DNA of 60,537 nt, taken from contig CAJEYI010000002.1 of NCBI GenBank assembly GCA_903994795.1, forward strand, positions 1-60,537, given 5' to 3'. Origin of the DNA: an uncultured bacterium. GTDB lineage: Bacteria; Patescibacteriota; Minisyncoccia; Phycocordibacterales; Phycocordibacteraceae. Shown in pieces: positions 16,744 through 25,366 of this stretch; position 1 is the first letter of the stretch, and every line of letters begins with the position of its first letter. The translations under genes were made by a program, and so were the position numbers. The notes beneath the pieces were generated by a model. That model saw only the letters and a program-made list of their open reading frames with translations, made no database searches and was not told the origin of the DNA.

Positions 16744-16775
16744 AAGAAAGCGTCCAAATGGGCGCTTTCTTGTTT
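16744..16775 (+). terminator. rho-independent terminator of dnaG-rpoD
   Basis: aagaaagcgtcc-aaat-gggcgctttctt is followed by gttt. Confidence 0.75.
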
Positions 16776-16797
16776 AAGTGATATTATTTATCTACTT

Positions 16798-17322
16798 ATG
16801 GAGAAGAAAAGAAACAACTATGCGTTTATAGATGGACAAAATCTCCACATGGCTACGGCGAAAAGGGATGTAGATCCATGGAAGATTGACCTCACTCGTT
16901 TCAGAATATATCTCGAAAGGAAATATGGAGTTTCAAAAGCTTACTATTTTCTCGGTTTCTTAGATGAGACTCAGCAGAAATTATATGAGAATATTCAGTC
17001 TGCGGGATTTATTTTAATATTCCGAGAGCACACATCGTTAATGCTTGGAAAAAAGAAGGGAAATGTGGATTCAGACATTATCTTACATGTCATGAAAAAG
17101 CTTTATCAGAAAGAGGTCTTTGACGGTGTAGTTTTGGTCTCTGGTGACGGGGATTACAAGCAACTCGTCGATTTCCTTGTGGAAGAAAAACGACTCGAAA
17201 AGATACTTTTCCCAGATGGGAGTCGAGCTTCGTCCTTATACAAAAAGCTAGGGGCCCCTTGTTTTGCAGCACTGGATGAGCCTGGAACTCGCAAGAAGAT
17301 AGAATTGAAAAAGGCTCCTTAG
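16798..17322 (+). CDS. NYN-domain (LabA/PIN-like) putative ribonuclease, copy 2
   Basis: NNYAFIDGQNL, GNVDSD and VSGDGDYKQLVDFL are present. It is collinear with copy 1 (7844-8362). Confidence 0.8.
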   Translation: MEKKRNNYAFIDGQNLHMATAKRDVDPWKIDLTRFRIYLERKYGVSKAYYFLGFLDETQQKLYENIQSAGFILIFREHTSLMLGKKKGNVDSDIILHVMKKLYQKEVFDGVVLVSGDGDYKQLVDFLVEEKRLEKILFPDGSRASSLYKKLGAPCFAALDEPGTRKKIELKKAP

Positions 17323-17447
17323 GCAGTTAGCCGTTCGGAACCTTTCTCGTCGTGATAGCTAGATTGTACTCTGTCGTATGTGAAGAGTCAATGATACGCA
17401 AGGGAAGTGTGTATAAGTCATCATTGTCAGTATCTCGACATTAATTG

Positions 17448-17476
17448 TTGACTATATGACGCTGACTCTATATACT
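17448..17476 (+). promoter_or_regulatory. sigma70-like promoter (TTGACT - 17 nt - TATACT)
   Basis: TTGACT is at 17448-17453 and TATACT at 17471-17476. The -10 ends 6 nt before ATG 17483, implying a leaderless or near-leaderless mRNA. Confidence 0.5.
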
Positions 17477-17498
17477 GGGTCTATGACCCAGTATATAG
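17468..17498. promoter_or_regulatory. perfect 14-bp palindrome (candidate operator) centred on the start codon
   Basis: ctatatactgggtc-tat-gacccagtatatag. The ATG at 17483 spans the spacer and the first base of the right arm, and the left arm overlaps the -10. Confidence 0.5.
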
Positions 17499-18175
17499 AA
17501 CACCTTAAAGAACTACGTACAAACAAAAGACTTTCCCAGGAAGTAGTAGCGCAAGCTATTGGCGTGTCGCGTCCCACATACAGTGCAATAGAAGCTGGTA
17601 CGCAGGAATTGAGTCTCGAGGAAGGTAAGAAACTTGCTACTCTATACGGCATTGGTATAGATGAACTTCTCTCTGGAAGCATTCCAAATATTGAGAAATA
17701 CAAGCATATGATACTTGCGTACCTTCGCATGAATATTTCTCGAGATGGAAAGATCCCAAAAACAAAGCTTGCAAAGATGCTCTATCTTGCTGACTTTGCA
17801 TGGTTCTATGAACACATGGAAAGCATGAGTGGTATGCCATATCGAAAGATCGCGTACGGTCCTGTACCAGATACGTTCTTTCGTGTGCTTGATGAGCTCG
17901 AAGAGTCAGGGAAAATCATCGTTGACCGGAAGAACGCAGAAGGAAAAGACATGCTTCTTATAAGTGAGTCAGAGAGTAACAAAAACGAGAAGATCCGAAC
18001 ACTCACAAAAGAAGAAGTCTCCCTCATGCAGAAAATCGCTAAGAAGTGGAAAGATAAGAAAACTAACGAAATCGTGAACTTTACCCATAACCAGTTGCCC
18101 TACGTGCTTTGTCGAGATAACGAACTCATTCCCTATGAACTCATAACTCAGGAGGATGTGGAGGCAGTGTATTAG
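17483..18175 (+). CDS. XRE-family HTH fused to a Panacea/SocA (DUF4065) antitoxin-type domain
   Basis: The N-terminal HTH reads LRTNKRLSQEVVAQAIGVSRPTYSAIEAG. The central region KLAKMLYLADFAWFYEHMESMSGMPYRKIAYGPV resembles DUF4065. The start is chosen at 17483 because ATG 17456 lies inside the promoter. Confidence 0.72.
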   Translation: MTQYIEHLKELRTNKRLSQEVVAQAIGVSRPTYSAIEAGTQELSLEEGKKLATLYGIGIDELLSGSIPNIEKYKHMILAYLRMNISRDGKIPKTKLAKMLYLADFAWFYEHMESMSGMPYRKIAYGPVPDTFFRVLDELEESGKIIVDRKNAEGKDMLLISESESNKNEKIRTLTKEEVSLMQKIAKKWKDKKTNEIVNFTHNQLPYVLCRDNELIPYELITQEDVEAVY

Positions 18176-18401
18176 AAAAGGCCACAAGTATTACCCCCTA
18201 CATATGATTATCATTATGGTAATTAACAGACGCAATGTTGTCATTTGACATGCGTAGCATCTAAGGAGTACGATAAATGAGTTAGTGCTAGATTATGGGT
18301 TCAACATTATTTATTGATACAGATTGGGACTAATCTTAAACCGTTACGCGGGGATTTTTTCGTTCGTTGATAAATAAATAGTAGGCAGTTCAGGGACAGC
18401 G

Positions 18402-18472
18402 CGGAGGCAACGGGAATCGAACCCGCGTCGCAACTTTAACGGAGAGGCGCTCTACCATTGAGCTATACCTCC
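18402..18472 (-). tRNA. tRNA-like gene, nominal anticodon GUU (Asn), probably degenerate
   Basis: The 71-nt cloverleaf has acceptor GGAGGTA/TGCCTCC, D arm GCTC-AATGGTA-GAGC and T arm GCGGG-TTCGATT-CCCGT. The anticodon stem CCTCT/AGTTG has only 3 of 5 pairs and position 33 is C, not U. No CCA is encoded. Confidence 0.55.
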
Positions 18473-18515
18473 GCGCTATTCCCGAACTGCTTATTATATT
18501 GTCAAAATTGAGAAC

Positions 18516-18750
18516 TGTTTCTAGGAGAGAAATGTTTTTAATAATTAAGGTCTATAGCCGACTACGTGACGAAACGGTGGTTTCCTAAAGTGTGGTGGAA
18601 TGAATTTGCCTGTTGAGGGCTGAACATATCCTTTCACGAGCTTACTTGGAGCTAACGGATTCTTCTGTGGTGCATAGATGGGTTTCAGCCCCATTTTTTG
18701 CGCTTGCTTTTCGGTCATATGGATTTAAGTTAGTTTCTCTCCTAGAAACA
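18516..18750. repeat. 17-bp perfect inverted repeat (about 25 bp imperfect) flanking about 200 bp of ORF-free DNA
   Basis: tgtttctaggagagaaa (18516-18532) pairs with tttctctcctagaaaca (18734-18750). The left arm overlaps a diverged copy of the shared promoter-like block (ttgtcaaaattgagaactgtttctagg). Confidence 0.6.
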
Positions 18751-18796
18751 ATTTTCAAAGAACAAATTTGATCAAAAACCTCGCAAAATTTAATGC

Positions 18797-18944
18797 GAGC
18801 TTTTTTGTAAAAACAAAAAAGCTCACGTTACTGATTTGAGAGGGTCAGGATAGAAGTCATCGTTAGAGGACAAATACCCGAGCCTTTGCAGAGGTGTTCA
18901 GGGTTTCCCCTGACGCCTCTCAAATCAATACATGAGCTTTTGTT
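18797..18944. repeat. nested inverted repeats / long imperfect hairpin
   Basis: An 11-bp perfect hairpin gagcttttttg/caaaaaagctc lies at 18797-18824. The long arms 18812-18849 (aacaaaaaagctcacgttactgatttgagagggtcagg) and 18909-18944 (cctgacgcctctcaaatcaatacatgagcttttgtt) pair. A 12-nt segment at 18887-18898 is complementary to 18985-18996. Confidence 0.55.
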
Positions 18945-19170
18945 TCGGACATTAGGAACTCGGATAATGATTTCTAGAAACTAAAACACCTCTGCATATA
19001 TAAATATATCATAAGTACAAAATTGAAAGCAACGTGTTGATAAGGAAACTGTGGACAATGATACTTCATTACTATTTTGCAGTATGCAATACATACAGTG
19101 CAAAACGTGCGCAGCATGTCGACAAGTCATGATCCTTACTGGTTTTGAGTAGGGCTGTTATAATAAAAAT

Positions 19171-20091
19171 ATGGTCGAAAAATCCTCAAACAATAATTTG
19201 CATAACGCCAGCAAGGCTAAAAAGGATGAGTTTTATACCCAGCTCATCGATATCGAGAAAGAGCTCAAGCACTATAAAGACCAGTTTCGCGACAAGGTAG
19301 TATTTTGCAATTGTGATGATCCAAAGGAAAGCGACTTTGTAAAATATTTTAGTAGAAACTTTGAGCATTTAGGACTAAAGAAATTAATTGCCACACACTT
19401 TAAAGAGGCAAATTTGTTTACTAAAGAATTGCCATATAAATTAGAATACACCGGTGATAAGAATGGTAGTCGAATGCCTGATCCTGATGAATTTATGACC
19501 GAGATGATTGGTACAGGTGATTTCCGAAGCGATGAATGCATTGAGTTACTGAAAGAAGCAGATATAGTAGTAACCAACCCACCCTTTTCTTTGTTTCGTG
19601 AGTATGTCGCGCAACTGGCGGAATACAACAAAAAGTTTCTTATTATCGGCAATACTAATGCCATGACCTATAAAGAAATTTTTACCCTATTTAAGGAAGA
19701 TAAAATCCGTACAGGCTACACAAATTTCAATGTAGGTATGTTTTTTATTGTGCCTGATGATTGGGAACTTTTTCACCATATAGATGAAAATGGTAAAAAA
19801 ATTGCGCGAGTTTCGACCTCGTGTTGGTTTACAAACCTTGATGTTGAAAAACATAAGGAAAATGTCACATTATATAAGAAATATAACCCTGAGGAATATC
19901 CACATTATGATAATTACGATGCAATTAATGTAGATAAGTACACTGACATTCCTTGTGATTATGATGGTGCTATCGGCGTTCCGATTACTTTTTTGGATAA
20001 ATATAATCCTGAGCAATTTGAAATCATTAAGTTTAGAAAGGGGGACGATGATAAAGACTTAATAGTAAATGGTAAGTTTCCTTATTATTAG
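19171..20091 (+). CDS. N6-adenine DNA methyltransferase, EcoRI-methylase-like family
   Basis: The catalytic motif IV is VVTNPPF. The N-terminal block KKDEFYTQ..DIEKEL..Y and VVFCNCDDP are typical of this family as I recall it. TATAAT at 19159-19164 lies only 6 nt before the ATG and there is no SD. Confidence 0.78.
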   Translation: MVEKSSNNNLHNASKAKKDEFYTQLIDIEKELKHYKDQFRDKVVFCNCDDPKESDFVKYFSRNFEHLGLKKLIATHFKEANLFTKELPYKLEYTGDKNGSRMPDPDEFMTEMIGTGDFRSDECIELLKEADIVVTNPPFSLFREYVAQLAEYNKKFLIIGNTNAMTYKEIFTLFKEDKIRTGYTNFNVGMFFIVPDDWELFHHIDENGKKIARVSTSCWFTNLDVEKHKENVTLYKKYNPEEYPHYDNYDAINVDKYTDIPCDYDGAIGVPITFLDKYNPEQFEIIKFRKGDDDKDLIVNGKFPYY

Positions 20092-20114
20092 GATAATAAT
20101 AAAGAAAAAATAAT

Positions 20115-21206
20115 ATGAAAATCGAACTGCATCAAATTCCTGTACGCGAAGTAATTGCAAACTACAAAGATAGTGCAGAGGAAGGTGTCGTTGCATACGC
20201 TGGCAAACTTGATGTTCGGCCAAAATATCAACGTGAGTTTGTATACAATGGTAAACAGCGAGATGCGGTAATTGAGACAATTAAAAAAGATTTTCCTTTA
20301 AATGTATTGTATTGGGTTAAAACAGATGAGGGGAAATATGAGGTTTTAGATGGGCAGCAACGTACTATCAGTATAGGTCAATATGTGACCGGAGAATTTT
20401 CACTTAATGATTACTTCTTTCATAATCTTACTGACGAGGAGCAAGATCAGATTTTGAATTATGAATTGATGATTTATTTTTGTGAAGGAACAGATAAAGA
20501 GAAGCTAGACTGGTTCAAGATTATCAACATTGCAGGAGAAAAACTTACAGAACAAGAGTTGCGTAATGCAGTGTATACGGGTCCATGGCTTTCTGATGCA
20601 AAACTCAAATTCAGTAAATCAAATTGTGCTGCGTATCTGCTTGCAAATGATGGTGGACAGTTAGTTAGTGGCTCCCCAATTCGACAGGAGTATTTAGAGA
20701 CTTCTCTTTCGTGGATTAATAATGAGAAGATCGAAGATTATATGGCTAAACATCAACATGATACAAATGCTGATGAGCTTTGGGATTACTTCCAGAATGT
20801 TATCTGGTGGGTAAGGACTACATTTACAAGCTATCGACGTGAAATGAGTGGCGTTGAATGGGGTGAACTATATAACGAATTTAAAGATGCGAAACTGAAT
20901 TCGGAAAAACTCGAGGTTGAAATCAAAGAGTTAATGCAAGATGAGGACGCTACAAAGAAGTCTGGTATCTATCCATATGTATTAACTCGAAAAGAAAGAT
21001 ACCTTTCGATCCGTGCGTTTACAGATAAAATGAAACGCGAAGCTTATGAACGACAAAATGGGATATGCCCATTTTGCAAAGAACATTGGGATATTTCAGA
21101 AATGGAAGCTGACCACATTACTCCTTGGCACGAAGGGGGCAAGACAATTGCACAGAATTGCCAGATGCTTTGTAAGCAAGACAATAGAACAAAATCAGGT
21201 AAATAA
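20115..21206 (+). CDS. DUF262 (ParB-like, DGQQR motif) domain fused to a C-terminal HNH nuclease
   Basis: LDGQQRT lies in the N-terminal third. The C-terminal HNH region reads CPFC...[13 protein letters not shown]...NCQMLC...N. It starts 23 nt after the MTase. Confidence 0.8.
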
Positions 21207-21210
21207 ATTT

Positions 21211-22425
21211 ATGAACGAAATTATATGTCCGCATTGCGAGAAGGCTTTCAAAATCGATGAGGCGGGATTTGCCGATATTCTAAAACAAGTCCACAATCAT
21301 GAGTTTGAAAAAGAACTGAATGAGCGTGTGGAAATCCTCAAAAAAGATAAGGAAAATGCCATCAAACTTGCCGAGGCAAATATTGCAATTATATTGCAAA
21401 AAGACCTCACAGCGAAGGATGCTGAGCTGGCCGAGATTAAATCCAAAATCAGTAATGTAGAGCTTGAAACAAAACTTGCAGTCACCGAAGCAGTAAATAA
21501 AATTGAGAAAGAGCGTGACGAACTTGCTGGCCAACTGAAAAGTAAAGATGCTGAGAAGCAACTGCTCGAAACAGCATTAAAAGAAAAGTATGTCATTGAG
21601 CTCAAGACCAAGGACGACATCATCAAGATGAAAGATGAGGAAATTGCTCTGCGTAAAGATATGAAAGTTAAGCTTTCAACAAAGATGGTAGGAGAAACAC
21701 TCGAACAGCACTGCGAGACCGAATTTAACAAGCTTCGCGCAACTGGATTTCAAAATGCATATTTCGAAAAAGACAACGATGCAACCGGTGGTAGCAAGGG
21801 TGACTACATATACCGCGAAACTGATGTGGCTGGGAACGAAATTATATCGATCATGTTCGAGATGAAAAACGAAGGCGATGAAACCGCCACTAAGAAAAAG
21901 AACGAAGACTTTTTACGTGAGCTTGATAAAGACCGCGCCGAGAAAAAATGTGAATACGCCGTTCTCGTTTCACTATTAGAAGCTGAAAACGAGCTCTATA
22001 ACACCGGCATTGTTGATGTTTCCCATAAACACCCAAAAATGTATGTCATTCGGCCTCAGTTTTTTATCCCGATGATAACTCTTTTGCGCAATGCTGCTTT
22101 GAATTCTATGAAATACAAATCTGAACTTGCGCTCGTAAGAAACCAGAATATTGATATTACTAATTTTGAGAATGAACTGAATGAGTTTCGTGATGGTTTT
22201 GGTCGTAATTTCCGGCTTGCATCTGAAAAGTTTAAAAGCGCTATAGACCACATTGATGAGTCCATAAAGCAACTTGAAAAAACAAAAAAAGAGCTTATCT
22301 CATCAGAAAATAACTTGCGTCTAGCAAATGATAAAGCAGAAGATTTGACTGTAAAAAAACTCACTCGCGGTAACCCTACTATGGCAGCCAAATTTGCTGA
22401 GGTGGAAACTGGAGAAAATCAGTAA
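21211..22425 (+). CDS. DUF2130-like protein: N-terminal Cys-His ribbon, long coiled coil, C-terminal globular domain
   Basis: [20 protein letters not shown] is followed by about 150 aa of heptad-like E/K-rich sequence. The C-terminal region contains GDYIYRE...[10 protein letters not shown]. It starts 4 nt after the previous stop; the ORF-track start at 21046 overlaps the upstream gene. Confidence 0.68.
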
Positions 22426-22506
22426 AGACCCTCTCAGTCAGTCATGTAAGTTAACGAAATTGTGTTATAATTGTTCTATATTTATTCGCTCCTAATAAAA
22501 TATTTT

Positions 22507-23046
22507 ATGTCTTTTAATTTTCTAAATCTAGACGACGAAACTCGCAAGTTAATGCTGTCAGAAGTTGAGCGAGATGAAAAGACCGGCACTGTGTATACAA
22601 GTACACGATTTACGACCGAAGGAATAACTGCTTATTCTAGCCTACTTAAGGAGTCTATAACGCGTGGAACGGAAACTTCACTCGCGGAATCATTAAACAA
22701 ACCACAATTCTTTAAGTCTACGGAAACAAGCACAACAAAAACCGGTGCGTCATATACGAAAGGAGTATCTGACATCGCATACCTTACTTTTGCTGAAGGA
22801 GAATTTAATAAATATTATATGCGAGCTCTTTCCTTGAGAGCTATTTCAGAGAACAGAAATCTTGAAATATACAGAGCCAAGGAAGTTGAGAATCACCAAC
22901 CAGATTCTGATGCAAAAATCGGAGAATCAATTAATGCCGACGATTTTCTCAAAGACTTGCAAGAACTACAAGTAAATAATTTCACTTATCCCGCTTCAGG
23001 GTGGTCTAGAAAACCAAACTCAGGGCTATCTGTAAAACTAACTTAG
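22507..23046 (+). CDS. hypothetical protein, last gene of the MTase/DUF262 cluster
   Basis: The ORF is 179 aa from ATG 22507 (MSFNFLNLDDETRK). No motif was recognised. It has the same strand and AT-rich composition as the three genes upstream. Confidence 0.5.
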   Translation: MSFNFLNLDDETRKLMLSEVERDEKTGTVYTSTRFTTEGITAYSSLLKESITRGTETSLAESLNKPQFFKSTETSTTKTGASYTKGVSDIAYLTFAEGEFNKYYMRALSLRAISENRNLEIYRAKEVENHQPDSDAKIGESINADDFLKDLQELQVNNFTYPASGWSRKPNSGLSVKLT

Positions 23047-23123
23047 TTCTTTTTAAGAGTCTTTTGGTTATTATTTATATATAAAAAAAGTTCCCGCGTC
23101 GTACCAAGCTCTCAGATATTTAC

Positions 23124-24008
23124 TTATTTAATAAAATTCCTCACCCGTAAATCACTCATCGCTACCTCTAACTCCTCCTGCGTGTTCATGACGATTGGTC
23201 CGTGCCAAGCTATTGGTTCGCCCAGGGGTTCGCCTGCGATGAAGAGGAATCGTGCGTCTGAGTTTGCGGGTGCTTCAACGCGTACGCTTTCGGTGAGTGA
23301 GTCCGAGCGCTCAGGAAGTTTGAGCTCTGGCAACCGCTCAGTGAGTGCTATCACGTCATTTAGTACTGGAGTGCGTTCGGATCCAACGAGCACCGTGCCA
23401 TCGAGGATGTAGAGGAGAACGGTGCTTGTGGATGAGACAGGGAACTCAAAACTCTTTCCGTGCTCAAGTGAGACGTCGAGATAGGTCGGAGCACCGGCGA
23501 CGTTGCCAACTGGTCCGAGTTCGCCATGGTGGGTGCCCGTAATAAGTCGGATGCGAGCGCCTGCTGTTTCTATGACGGGAATGGTATTCGCTCGCACGTC
23601 TTGGTAGCGGGGCTTTGCCATCTTAAACGCCTTCGGTAGGTTTACCCACAACTGAAATCCGCGAATGCCTTCTGGGCGGTCTTGGGGCACCTTGGTGAGT
23701 CAATTACTATCAGCCGCCATGCCCTCATGCCATGGCACTTCGCCAGGAAGAATGGTGCCAGTGTTTCCGAGACTGTCTTCGTGTGCGACTTCGCCCTCGA
23801 GGATGTAGGTGACGGTCTCAATGCCGCGGTGTGGGTGCCAAGGGAAGCCAGCAAGGAAGTCAGAGGGTTGCGATGAGCTGAAGTCGTCAAAGAGGAGGAA
23901 TGGATCGAGTTCGTGTGCCTCAGGATAACTAAACGCACGACGAAGCAACACACCAGCTCCCTCGAGTGTTGGTTGTGGACGGAAGATTTTCGCAACGGAG
24001 CGGATCAT
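23124..24008 (-). pseudogene. pirin-family (bicupin) gene interrupted by one in-frame TGA
   Basis: The N-terminal ORF (23700-24008) contains [16 protein letters not shown]...H.DS.GN. The C-terminal ORF (23124-23690) contains GFQLWVNLP. Both are in the same frame, separated only by TGA at 23700-23702 plus 3 codons. Confidence 0.8.
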
Positions 24009-24121: not shown

Positions 24122-24598
24122 ATGATCGAATACACCGAGGGAGAATTTAAGTTAATGAAGGCAAAAGGTGATGATTTATATAAATCACTTGAGGACGTTT
24201 ATTGTCCATATTTCAAGGAAAAGGTCGCTTTTAACGCTGAAGGACTTGAGCATATTTCATTTAGGAATCGAGGAAAGTATCGGTCTGAAGCAGATCAGTT
24301 TATGAGATTTAAGTATCTTCATCTTGTGCCAGAGATTCTTAAAATTTCACGTACCGTACAGGGAATCCGTAAAATAAAGAAATTTGAACAGGTTCGTATG
24401 CATAATAGAACGGAGACTGTACTAAAAGAGGTTACGTACTATCAGTTTATAGCTGTGCTAGGAACAGTGCGAATTATGGTAGTCGTAAAACAGATAGAAA
24501 ATATGCAGAAGTATTTCTTCAGCATTATTCCTTTTTGGAAAATGAACAGAGAAATGAATTCCAGAGTAATACATGAGGGGAATCCTGAGGAGGATTAA
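24122..24598 (+). CDS. hypothetical protein (158 aa)
   Basis: A clean ORF with a terminator behind it. No family was recognised by eye. Confidence 0.5.
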   Translation: MIEYTEGEFKLMKAKGDDLYKSLEDVYCPYFKEKVAFNAEGLEHISFRNRGKYRSEADQFMRFKYLHLVPEILKISRTVQGIRKIKKFEQVRMHNRTETVLKEVTYYQFIAVLGTVRIMVVVKQIENMQKYFFSIIPFWKMNREMNSRVIHEGNPEED

Positions 24599-24606
24599 AA
24601 CAAAAA

Positions 24607-24629
24607 ATCCGCCAGAGGCGGGTCTTTTG
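24607..24629 (+). terminator. rho-independent terminator
   Basis: atccgcc-aga-ggcgggt is followed by cttttgt. Confidence 0.6.
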
Positions 24630-24892
24630 TAAGCGTTTGGTTACAGTGTATAAACCGTGAGGGAGCGAACTCCCCAAACGCTTTATATAATATATCAAAA
24701 CAAGAAATCTGACGCAAATATATTCTCTTGTGGAGTAGGGAGGTCGACAGCCCCTCCATCGCACATCCTTGAACTTTCATTTCTGGAAGTCGCAGATGAC
24801 ACTTGGATAGAGACGGTTTCTGCATTTCAACCCCACAACAAAATGTATTTCTTTAGAAATAGTAGCAGAGCAAGAATATAAATCAACTAAAC

Positions 24893-24932
24893 ATTTTTAT
24901 TCAGGAATTCTTTAGAACAAATTCACTTCGGC
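24893..24932 (+). promoter_or_regulatory. diverged copy of the shared promoter-like block
   Basis: tttattcaggaattctttagaacaaattcacttcggc aligns with 12835-12881 (tcagaaaatctttagaaa...ttcagc). Confidence 0.35.
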
Positions 24933-24961
24933 TCTATCACTCTTGTGTACACTGTGTGGCT

Positions 24962-25366
24962 ATGGATTCCGAGAAGGACGTACGACATGAAAAGTGGAGT
25001 CAGAAACAACAACTTCTAGATTTAAACAAGAGAGATCTCCTTTTTAAGGAAAGGGAGATTTGGTGGTGTTCTGTAGGGATGAACATCGGGGAAGAGGTGT
25101 ACGGAAAAGGCCCAGACTTTAAAAGACCCGTTCTAATTTTGAAAAAGCTTTCAAATAACTCATGTATAGTCTTACCCATAACCACCAAAAGACATTCTGG
25201 AAATTGGTACTATAAATTTACTTCGCATGATATGACTCGTTGGGTAATGATTCATCAAATACGTTCTATTTCTGCAAACAGATTTGCTAAAAGACAGGGC
25301 GAGTTACGGGAGGACGACTTCAGTAAATTAAAGAAGTCCGTAGCATCTCTGCTCGGACTTCTTTAA
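24962..25366 (+). CDS. MazF/PemK-family toxin-like protein, third and more divergent copy
   Basis: EREIWWCSVGMNIGEE..G....KRPVLILKK, VLPITTK and HQIRSISANRF are present. The last codons and the stop lie in the hairpin aagaagtccg/cggacttctt. No antitoxin ORF is adjacent. Confidence 0.75.
   Translation: MDSEKDVRHEKWSQKQQLLDLNKRDLLFKEREIWWCSVGMNIGEEVYGKGPDFKRPVLILKKLSNNSCIVLPITTKRHSGNWYYKFTSHDMTRWVMIHQIRSISANRFAKRQGELREDDFSKLKKSVASLLGLL

Follow-up and report, generated by a model that had tools for sequence, protein, structure and literature searches.

The question raised by this locus is whether four closely spaced genes of a Patescibacteria contig (CAJEYI010000002.1) constitute one new defence system or are separate modules that have come to stand side by side. 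The window, i.e., the whole stretch of DNA that was analysed, has a length of 60,537 nt, and the genes concerned, g1 to g4 (Table 1), encode in this order an EcoRI-family DNA methyltransferase (M), a DUF262-HNH restriction endonuclease (R), a DUF2130 protein and a small protein belonging to a family of uncharacterised stand-alone proteins. In a preliminary description, made from the letters of the DNA alone, the group was read as a compact four-gene candidate defence operon. The four genes are better regarded as three independent modules in a Patescibacteria defence island, namely the restriction-modification (R-M) pair g1 + g2, the DUF2130 gene g3 and the gene g4, rather than as one system, and the probability of this reading is put at roughly 0.7.

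The outward features of an operon are real. The coordinates of the open reading frames (ORFs) confirm four plus-strand genes with intergenic gaps of 23, 4 and 81 nt (the start of g3 being taken as the ATG at 21211, internal to a longer ORF beginning at 21046), and the AT-richness described relative to the flanking genes is borne out by a GC content of 0.33–0.42 over about 16750–23100, against about 0.46–0.56 in the rpoD and pirin flanks. The common strand, the short gaps and the low GC are the points in favour of a single new defence system of four cooperating proteins, but they do not extend to other genomes. Two samples of loci were compared: on the g2 side, 80 species-representative loci and 9 others (n = 89), and on the g3 side, 80 metagenome loci with g3 at 56–78% identity. 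g3 adjoins the R-M pair in 5/89 loci of the first sample and in 1/80 of the second (locus L092), and g4 occurs together with the g1–g3 families in none of the 169 (0/89 and 0/80). The co-occurrence check that the preliminary description had proposed thus found that the four families are not conserved together in the same order, and the operon is not borne out. In addition, relatives of g4 are located in unrelated contexts, g4 has a promoter-like element of its own, and g1 + g2 form a self-sufficient pair on many small plasmids, which together make a four-gene system scarcely credible. Across the 89 loci the genes next to the R-M pair are hypervariable, and the largest accessory cluster, DUF2130, has just five members.

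First of all, the R-M pair is identified by its family matches. g1 corresponds to the Pfam family EcoRI_methylase (PF13651; E 7e-125, 417 bits, profile positions 1–305 of 345) and to the PADLOC model MTase_II (PDLC03297; E 1e-115), and the DxVVTNPPFS motif is invariant across the alignment of its homologues; the assignment as an N6-adenine methyltransferase with NPPF is confirmed by the PF13651 match and by the motif in the translation. g2 corresponds to the PADLOC model REase_II (PDLC03418; residues 1–363 against model positions 1–372/372, E 5.3e-137). The proposed type II-like R-M with a DUF262-HNH nuclease is upheld by these two PADLOC matches. The same matches remove most of what had made the arrangement look unnamed and atypical: PDLC03418 and PDLC03297 place it largely within a catalogued R-M type, and plasmids from many phyla frequently carry the pair.

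Of the 89 loci, 84 have an EcoRI-family methylase upstream of R, which becomes 84/85 where the upstream DNA suffices; four of the five exceptions end at a contig edge, and the other (L030) has a DnaJ-domain gene instead. The commonest distance from the stop of M to the start of R among the sampled loci is 1 nt. When plasmids were searched by tblastn, 44 records with near-full-length g2 homologues were obtained, spanning Bacillota, Bacteroidota, Actinomycetota and Alpha-, Beta- and Gammaproteobacteria, and the plasmid carriers of the M-R pair include Macrococcoides, Aeromonas, Sulfitobacter, Variovorax and lactobacilli; the pair is also present in a few phage records. RefSeq labels its two members 'adenine-specific methyltransferase EcoRI family protein' and 'DUF262 domain-containing protein'. 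In metagenomes g2 has more than 8000 strong matches, many of them at 82–86% identity and named Patescibacteria, and a scan of one genome per species confirmed 566 relatives. Judged from sequence, g1 + g2 belongs to a catalogued, very widespread and horizontally mobile Type II-like R-M family.

In comparison with the Type II and HNH type II enzymes of PADLOC, the pair has the same separate, same-strand M and R, the same abutting junction and the same CxxC...DH...N...N core of the HNH domain; the difference is that the methylase of the window is truncated by a frameshift. In contrast to classical type IIP enzymes, g2 adds a DUF262/ParB-like N-terminus, which hints at nucleotide-dependent control. 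With the EcoRI system the likeness lies in g1, through its PF13651 match and the NPPF catalytic motif shared with M.EcoRI, whereas g2 is unrelated to the PD-(D/E)xK enzyme R.EcoRI and the C-terminal segment of g1 relatives is modular. Sequence and profile searches of the PDB returned no solved structure for g1 or g2. The DNA upstream of g1 has no similarity to the upstream DNA of the other loci. Over the 51 kb of the window that belong to the host, no palindrome was significantly avoided, the strongest values being GATC (z -2.4) and CTCGAG (z -2.2), and the test is uninformative on the target because 51 kb is too short.

Two further observations concern the pair in other loci. Among the g1 homologues L005–L089, the methylase stretch from FEII to the PY(A/F)R tail (C-terminal 40–70 residues) takes at least four forms unrelated to one another (GLGISNSG…, KFRKGDDDKDL…, GSNRGVDQD… and GMSASAGY…), and the partner nuclease is about 75–85% identical despite them, which would be odd if the variable segment set target recognition. 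Embedding between restriction genes is better known for type I R-M. Here, extra genes sit between M and R of a type II pair in about 16/84 loci (L021, L022, L023, L046, L050, L053, L061, L062, L065, L066, L067, L074, L075, L078 and L081), and the embedded genes include RhuM (twice), Fic/DOC, a trypsin-like peptidase and an AAA_15/AAA_21 ATPase.

The nuclease g2 is composed of an N-terminal DUF262/ParB-Srx-like domain, a helical middle and a C-terminal zinc-finger HNH domain. Pfam recognises GmrSD_N/DUF262 (PF03235; residues 34–154, 64.7 bits) and HNH (PF01844; residues 318–361), with a sub-threshold HNH_5 match overlapping the latter, and gives no match to DUF1524; these matches and the translation agree with the described fusion of a DGQQR-bearing DUF262 domain to an HNH motif (CPFC...DH...N). 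Every residue that is invariant in homologues down to 41% identity is kept, that is, DGQQR 79–83, C318, C321, D333-H334, N348 and N357. In a PDB profile search only the HNH core was found (T4 endonuclease VII, McrA and Gme HNH), together with a marginal match to the DUF262 domain of BrxU (7p9k, E 0.056).

The DGQQR-type DUF262 domain is common to GmrSD, BrxU and SspE, in which it is connected with nucleotide/DNA-dependent control (PMC4619093, PMC12707154), and g2 further resembles these enzymes in its C-terminal His-Me finger nuclease and its defence-island setting. On the strength of the shared domain (PMC4619093) and of the weak BrxU match, g2 might be taken for a GmrSD-like type IV modification-dependent nuclease, with a methylase that is not its protective partner. 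This is very improbable: M and R are linked almost without exception, their genes overlapping or lying 1 nt apart, g2 fits the REase_II model and no type IV model, and its C-terminal domain is a PF01844 HNH with a zinc finger, whereas theirs is DUF1524. The EcoRI-family m6A (N6-methyladenine) methylase that is near-universally linked to g2 would, going by this linkage, be the cognate methylase that such enzymes do without. Since it is accompanied by a cognate m6A methylase, g2 presumably attacks unmodified rather than modified DNA.

The methylase of the window had been suspected of being slightly short, rightly so, and the cause is a +1 frameshift. DNA alignment against L075, L015 and L013, all without the extra base, locates one additional A at 20087, which brings a TAG into frame. 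Past this site the +1 frame reads R-I-I-I-K-K-K-stop, with the TAA at 20111–20113, 1 nt ahead of the g2 ATG, and the M|R junction restored in this way (1 nt) matches the junction of most relatives. The frameshift lies nine codons ahead of the ancestral stop and replaces an 8-residue conserved tail by a single Tyr; the NPPF motif and the conserved core of g1 are intact. The C-terminal variant concerned, …FEIIKFRKGDDDKDL.VNGK.PYFRIIIKKK, is common to L075, L013, L015, L054, L089 and L023. Of 88 M homologues, 82 are uninterrupted, and 81 of these (all but that of the window) end in a (Y/F)xR(I/L/V)x(I/V)(K/R)-basic tail; the remaining six consist of one with an atypical ending (L067) and five disrupted genes (L002, L029, L041, L046 and L066), each beside an intact-looking nuclease, for which assembly errors or recurrent decay are both possible. 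Two other assemblies (from runs ERR4413804 and ERR4413531) match this DNA at 100% identity over stretches of 8.3 and 6.8 kb, frameshift site included, and the frameshift therefore belongs to the population rather than to an error in one assembly. Programmed +1 frameshifting at TAT-TAG-G, which would restore ...PYYRIIIKKK, was considered and rejected, there being no slippery re-pairing codon and no conservation, with the window population as the sole case.

Because the conserved basic tail is replaced by a single Tyr, the R-M system may be weakened or decaying. Taken to its end, this would make the pair a decaying relic with an inactive methylase and a silenced or inactive nuclease, at a locus that no longer restricts. 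Such a relic would be consistent with a real frameshift, with the loss of a tail kept by all other uninterrupted homologues, with the pseudogene state of the neighbouring pirin gene and with the five other loci in which a disrupted M stands beside an intact-looking R. However, g2 retains all invariant residues, M loses just eight residues with its catalytic motifs intact, and an active R next to a dead M should be lethal, which speaks for M still working or R being controlled. A relic is thus considered rather unlikely.

In the reading of three independent modules, the second is g3, a member of DUF2130 (PF09903; Pfam E 5.5e-86, 288 bits against a cut-off of 26.7). It consists of a CxxC...H N-terminus, a helix of about 150 residues, which is read from a low-confidence AlphaFold2 (AF2) model, and a PD-(D/E)xK-type C-terminal domain (D198, E217-x-K219). 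Residues D198, E217 and K219 as well as C6, C9 and H30 are invariant in 46 sequences, and GDYIY...FEMK is present in the translation. DUF2130 is listed as PD-(D/E)XK family 109, function unknown (PMC3424549), and no other literature on it was found beyond this listing. The motifs, the Pfam match and the listing (PMC3424549) support the Cys-His ribbon, the long helix or coiled coil and the nuclease-like D...E.K C-terminus that had been seen in g3. No family of PADLOC-DB 2.0, with the PDC and HEC candidates included, matched g3 at E <= 0.01, and NCBIfam and PDB sequences added nothing. Of the structure predictions that the preliminary description had called for, that of g4 was confident and that of g3 was too poor for its fold to be confirmed (predicted local distance difference test, pLDDT, 60; predicted template-modelling score, pTM, 0.32), because the g3 alignment is shallow (79–89% identity). 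By domain architecture alone, g3 resembles RmuC in that a restriction-endonuclease-like domain comes after a long helical region, but the Pfam families differ (PF02646 for RmuC). In L009, an RmuC gene is located two genes past the R-M pair.

g2 and g3 stand side by side in nine loci, in which g3 is 71–88% and R 39–83% identical to the window copies. The order is M-R-D (D denoting DUF2130) in six of them (the window, L018, L045, L092, L180 and L181) and M-D-R, with D exactly at the M|R junction, in three (L041, L058 and L079). The identity of g2 does not follow that of g3, being 39% for R and 88% for DUF2130 in L181 and 83% and 73%, respectively, in L018, and on a neighbour-joining tree of g2 the loci are dispersed. 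Because of this scatter and the uncorrelated identities, the juxtaposition is concluded to have arisen several times and not to descend from an old co-evolving complex. Among the three closest g3 homologues (87–88% identical), those of L180 and L181 belong to M-R-DUF2130 trios with gaps of 4–11 nt, and the third sits between a large helicase-nuclease gene and a DUF2779 gene.

These loci give some room to a three-gene unit M-R-DUF2130, in which DUF2130 would act as a second nuclease after HNH cleavage, or as a sensor or back-up when restriction is blocked. In the nine loci g3 adjoins the pair on the same strand with gaps of 4–40 nt, three times precisely between M and R; the association arose with R-M versions of as little as 39% identity; no accessory gene recurs at this R-M more often than DUF2130; and two of the three closest g3 homologues are in such trios. 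On the other hand, about 94% of the R-M pairs are without DUF2130, about 97–99% of the sampled DUF2130 genes are without this R-M, the g2 and g3 identities are uncorrelated, and DUF2130 is coupled equally tightly to unrelated defence genes. A functional trio of this kind is therefore regarded as clearly unlikely, and DUF2130 is most likely a separate module, which serves defence or DNA processing independently or in loose cooperation, and not an obligate R-M subunit.

Several points weigh against complete independence of the modules and against too simple a view of the R-M pair. DUF2130 is the most recurrent accessory family at this R-M, above a random island neighbour. The 4-nt gap between g2 and g3 is also present in L180, gaps of 5–11 nt are present in L018, L045, L092 and L181, and no terminator is predicted between g1 and g3; given the short recurring gap and the lack of a predicted terminator, g3 is probably co-transcribed with the R-M genes here and could cooperate with them. 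The methylase, in turn, is truncated at its C-terminus. Finally, neither an experimental paper nor a REBASE name for this R-M family was found in the literature, and the 'Type II' label therefore rests on the PADLOC model and the gene organisation, not on biochemistry.

The wider neighbourhood of DUF2130 is also that of defence genes. DUF2130 genes lie at most 20 nt behind a same-strand gene in 14/70 cases, and 8/10 of the tight upstream partners scanned are restriction or defence-associated. These upstream partners comprise HsdR (EcoEI_R_C), ResIII, an Eco57I/MmeI-type fusion, Shedu SduA_C, AAA_13, AAA_21/SMC-like, OLD (AAA_15 + TOPRIM) and DUF2779 proteins, and the flanking genes match the PADLOC models AriA, LmuB, mad3, PDC-S06, Old, GajA, PDC-S37 and Hhe. 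On a Citrobacter freundii plasmid (NZ_CP056645.1, L184), DUF2130 and an OLD-type 'ATP-dependent endonuclease' are embedded together, with helicase/DUF4391 genes on one side and methyltransferase/DEAD-helicase genes on the other. On Lactococcus lactis pNP40 (NC_010901.1, L185), DUF2130 (WP_012477738.1) has on one side two cytosine-methylase genes and an AAA ATPase gene and on the other a TrlF-family ATPase gene; DUF2130 is not among the systems described in a study of the lactococcal plasmidome (PMC11381338). A DUF2130 cassette with conserved ends was sought and rejected, as the 3′ flanks are unrelated and the recurring part amounts to a short TAAA(A)TT(T)-ATG junction. DUF2779 genes recur beside DUF2130 (L177, L180, L122, L123 and L132), directly downstream in L177 and L180, and a DUF2779 gene is also found near the R-M pair in L008.

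The position of DUF2130 at the M|R junction in three loci and behind R in six is similar to that of the 'guilt-by-embedding' genes, of which PrrC, RhuM and Fic are examples from R-M loci, and the other genes embedded at the M|R junction of this pair follow the same pattern; the screen of that name covered Hma, BREX, DISARM and type I R-M, and not type II pairs (Payne et al., bioRxiv 10.1101/2024.01.29.577857). A broader proposal is that DUF2130 is a widespread single-gene plug-in cassette of restriction (types I, II, IIG and III), OLD, Shedu and AAA_13 loci, and, in addition, that g4 has a new fold and acts in defence or anti-defence; this combined proposal is doubtful, although tenable as a tentative one. 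If the plug-in part is true, the M-R-DUF2130 arrangement of the window would be one instance of a general partnership.

The third module, g4, has no recognisable motif, as had been stated, and gave no match in Pfam, PADLOC (E <= 0.01), NCBIfam or PDB sequences. Its family is nevertheless large: 518 homologues were obtained by a word-indexed search and 1433 representative clusters in all were recorded, almost all of 170–185 aa and stand-alone, and g4 matches phrog_30545 over its full length (E 5e-38). The motifs of g4 are AEGEFNRFY, YRAK and PNSGLS. Its AF2 model is confident (pLDDT 94, pTM 0.90), and a fold search against the PDB gave no match (best E 0.25). A MuF-like, minor-capsid or head-morphogenesis protein was considered and not assigned, the similarity in BFVD being weak (TM about 0.5, E 5e-3). 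In the spacer between g3 and g4, an extended -10 promoter-like element (Table 1) was read from the sequence, although it is absent from the list of the two-hexamer scan; possession of its own element suggests that g4 is transcribed separately.

The homologues of g4 are found in a serine-recombinase/Rep element with a DUF559 gene, in a RecO neighbourhood, in a Paenibacillus locus with HNH and FokI-like genes and in an integrase/methylase/PIN cluster, and no partner gene common to the contexts examined was found. The genes of about 190 aa downstream of g4 in L170 and L173 were considered as a conserved partner and rejected, since they are mutually unrelated and absent from the window. One protein, P0468 (553 aa), joins a g4 domain to an AAA_15/AAA_21 (OLD/ABC-type) ATPase, which is either a true fusion or a merging of gene calls.

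Under the reading of three independent modules, the mechanism can be proposed as follows. The EcoRI-family methyltransferase would mark host adenines (m6A) at its target sequence, and the DUF262-HNH enzyme would cut DNA without this mark through its HNH centre, with the DUF262 domain, by analogy with GmrSD, BrxU and SspE, probably binding nucleotide and/or DNA and gating the HNH. DUF2130 would be a separate nuclease-type module, co-transcribed here, which seems to behave as a one-gene cassette landing behind or between the genes of restriction or defence operons. g4, of a family shared with phages, would act independently.

As for the significance of these modules, the R-M pair is a matter of routine annotation: a bacterium of the candidate phyla carries a mobile m6A R-M module like hundreds of its relatives. 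The DUF262-HNH enzyme family apparently has no published biochemistry or structure, and it would show the use of a ParB-like nucleotide-binding domain in a nuclease that is blocked by methylation instead of depending on modification. DUF2130 has thousands of highly conserved members, essentially no literature and no place in PADLOC, and its embedding signature spans phyla that include tractable hosts (Lactococcus pNP40 and the Citrobacter plasmid), which makes it a cheap, testable defence candidate. The g4 family offers a confidently predicted fold without a solved relative.

Table 1. Coordinates of the four genes and associated features in the window.
Feature	Position	Strand	Description and basis
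g1	19171-20091	+	306 aa, EcoRI-family (gamma-type, NPPF) N6-adenine DNA methyltransferase; C-terminus truncated
g2	20115-21206	+	363 aa, DUF262-HNH restriction endonuclease
g3	21211-22425	+	404 aa, DUF2130 protein
g4	22507-23046	+	179 aa, family of uncharacterised stand-alone proteins (phrog_30545)
Frameshift site and out-of-frame ancestral methylase 3′ end	20087-20113	+	DNA alignment
Extended -10 promoter-like element TGTTATAAT (TGnTATAAT)	22463-22471	+	Read from sequence, g3-g4 spacer; absent from two-hexamer scan list
tRNA-Asn(GTT), left landmark of the AT-rich stretch	18401-18472	-	ARAGORN; Rfam RF00005, 57.6 bits against a threshold of 29
Pirin pseudogene, host-like GC, right boundary	23124-24008	-	Pirin + Pirin_C on two ORFs

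The gene order around the group is rpoD, NYN, an HTH-SocA/Panacea antitoxin gene, tRNA-Asn, 0.7 kb of non-coding DNA, M, R, DUF2130 and g4, followed on the right by the pirin pseudogene, a gene for an unknown protein of 158 aa, a PemK toxin gene and a gene for a UvrD-PD-(D/E)xK helicase. Across loci, defence ATPases are frequent among the neighbours of the R-M pair. The stretch has no integrase, a search for att-like direct repeats of the tRNA or of the island ends gave nothing, and the region is a defence island segment without detectable integration scars. The pirin pseudogene noted on the right is confirmed by the division of Pirin and Pirin_C and by an in-frame TGA at 23700–23702, which together with a local frame disruption splits the gene; the same split is present in an independent assembly (L182).

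On the left side, the tRNA that had been called degenerate is a normal tRNA-Asn(GTT) according to both ARAGORN and Rfam, and the repeats found in the DNA between it and g1 are inverted repeats and hairpins, with no direct ones. The tRNA-Asn lies inside a 30-nt inverted repeat with 83% complementarity (18378–18407/18468–18497), which lengthens its acceptor stem by about 24 nt into each flank. Next to it, a 25-nt inverted repeat with 92% complementarity (18508–18532/18734–18758) encloses a proline-rich minus-strand ORF of 57 aa (18545–18718), which another assembly annotates as a gene. A long imperfect hairpin is situated upstream of the methylase at 18817–18942, the 191-nt fold (18810–19000) having a free energy (dG) of -62.6 kcal/mol and a z of -5.2 relative to shuffled sequences; Rfam gives no match for the hairpin, and neither the rest of the window nor the related loci contain a copy.

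Further outward, no obvious toxin gene in the window adjoins the gene with HTH and SocA/Panacea antitoxin-type domains (17456–18175), and HTH-Panacea homologues are located immediately downstream of R in L020, L043, L046 and L073. A second AT-rich patch at 24122–25366 holds the unknown 158-aa ORF and the PemK/MazF-type toxin gene, and PemK homologues occur near the same R-M pair in L025, L033, L062 and L066.

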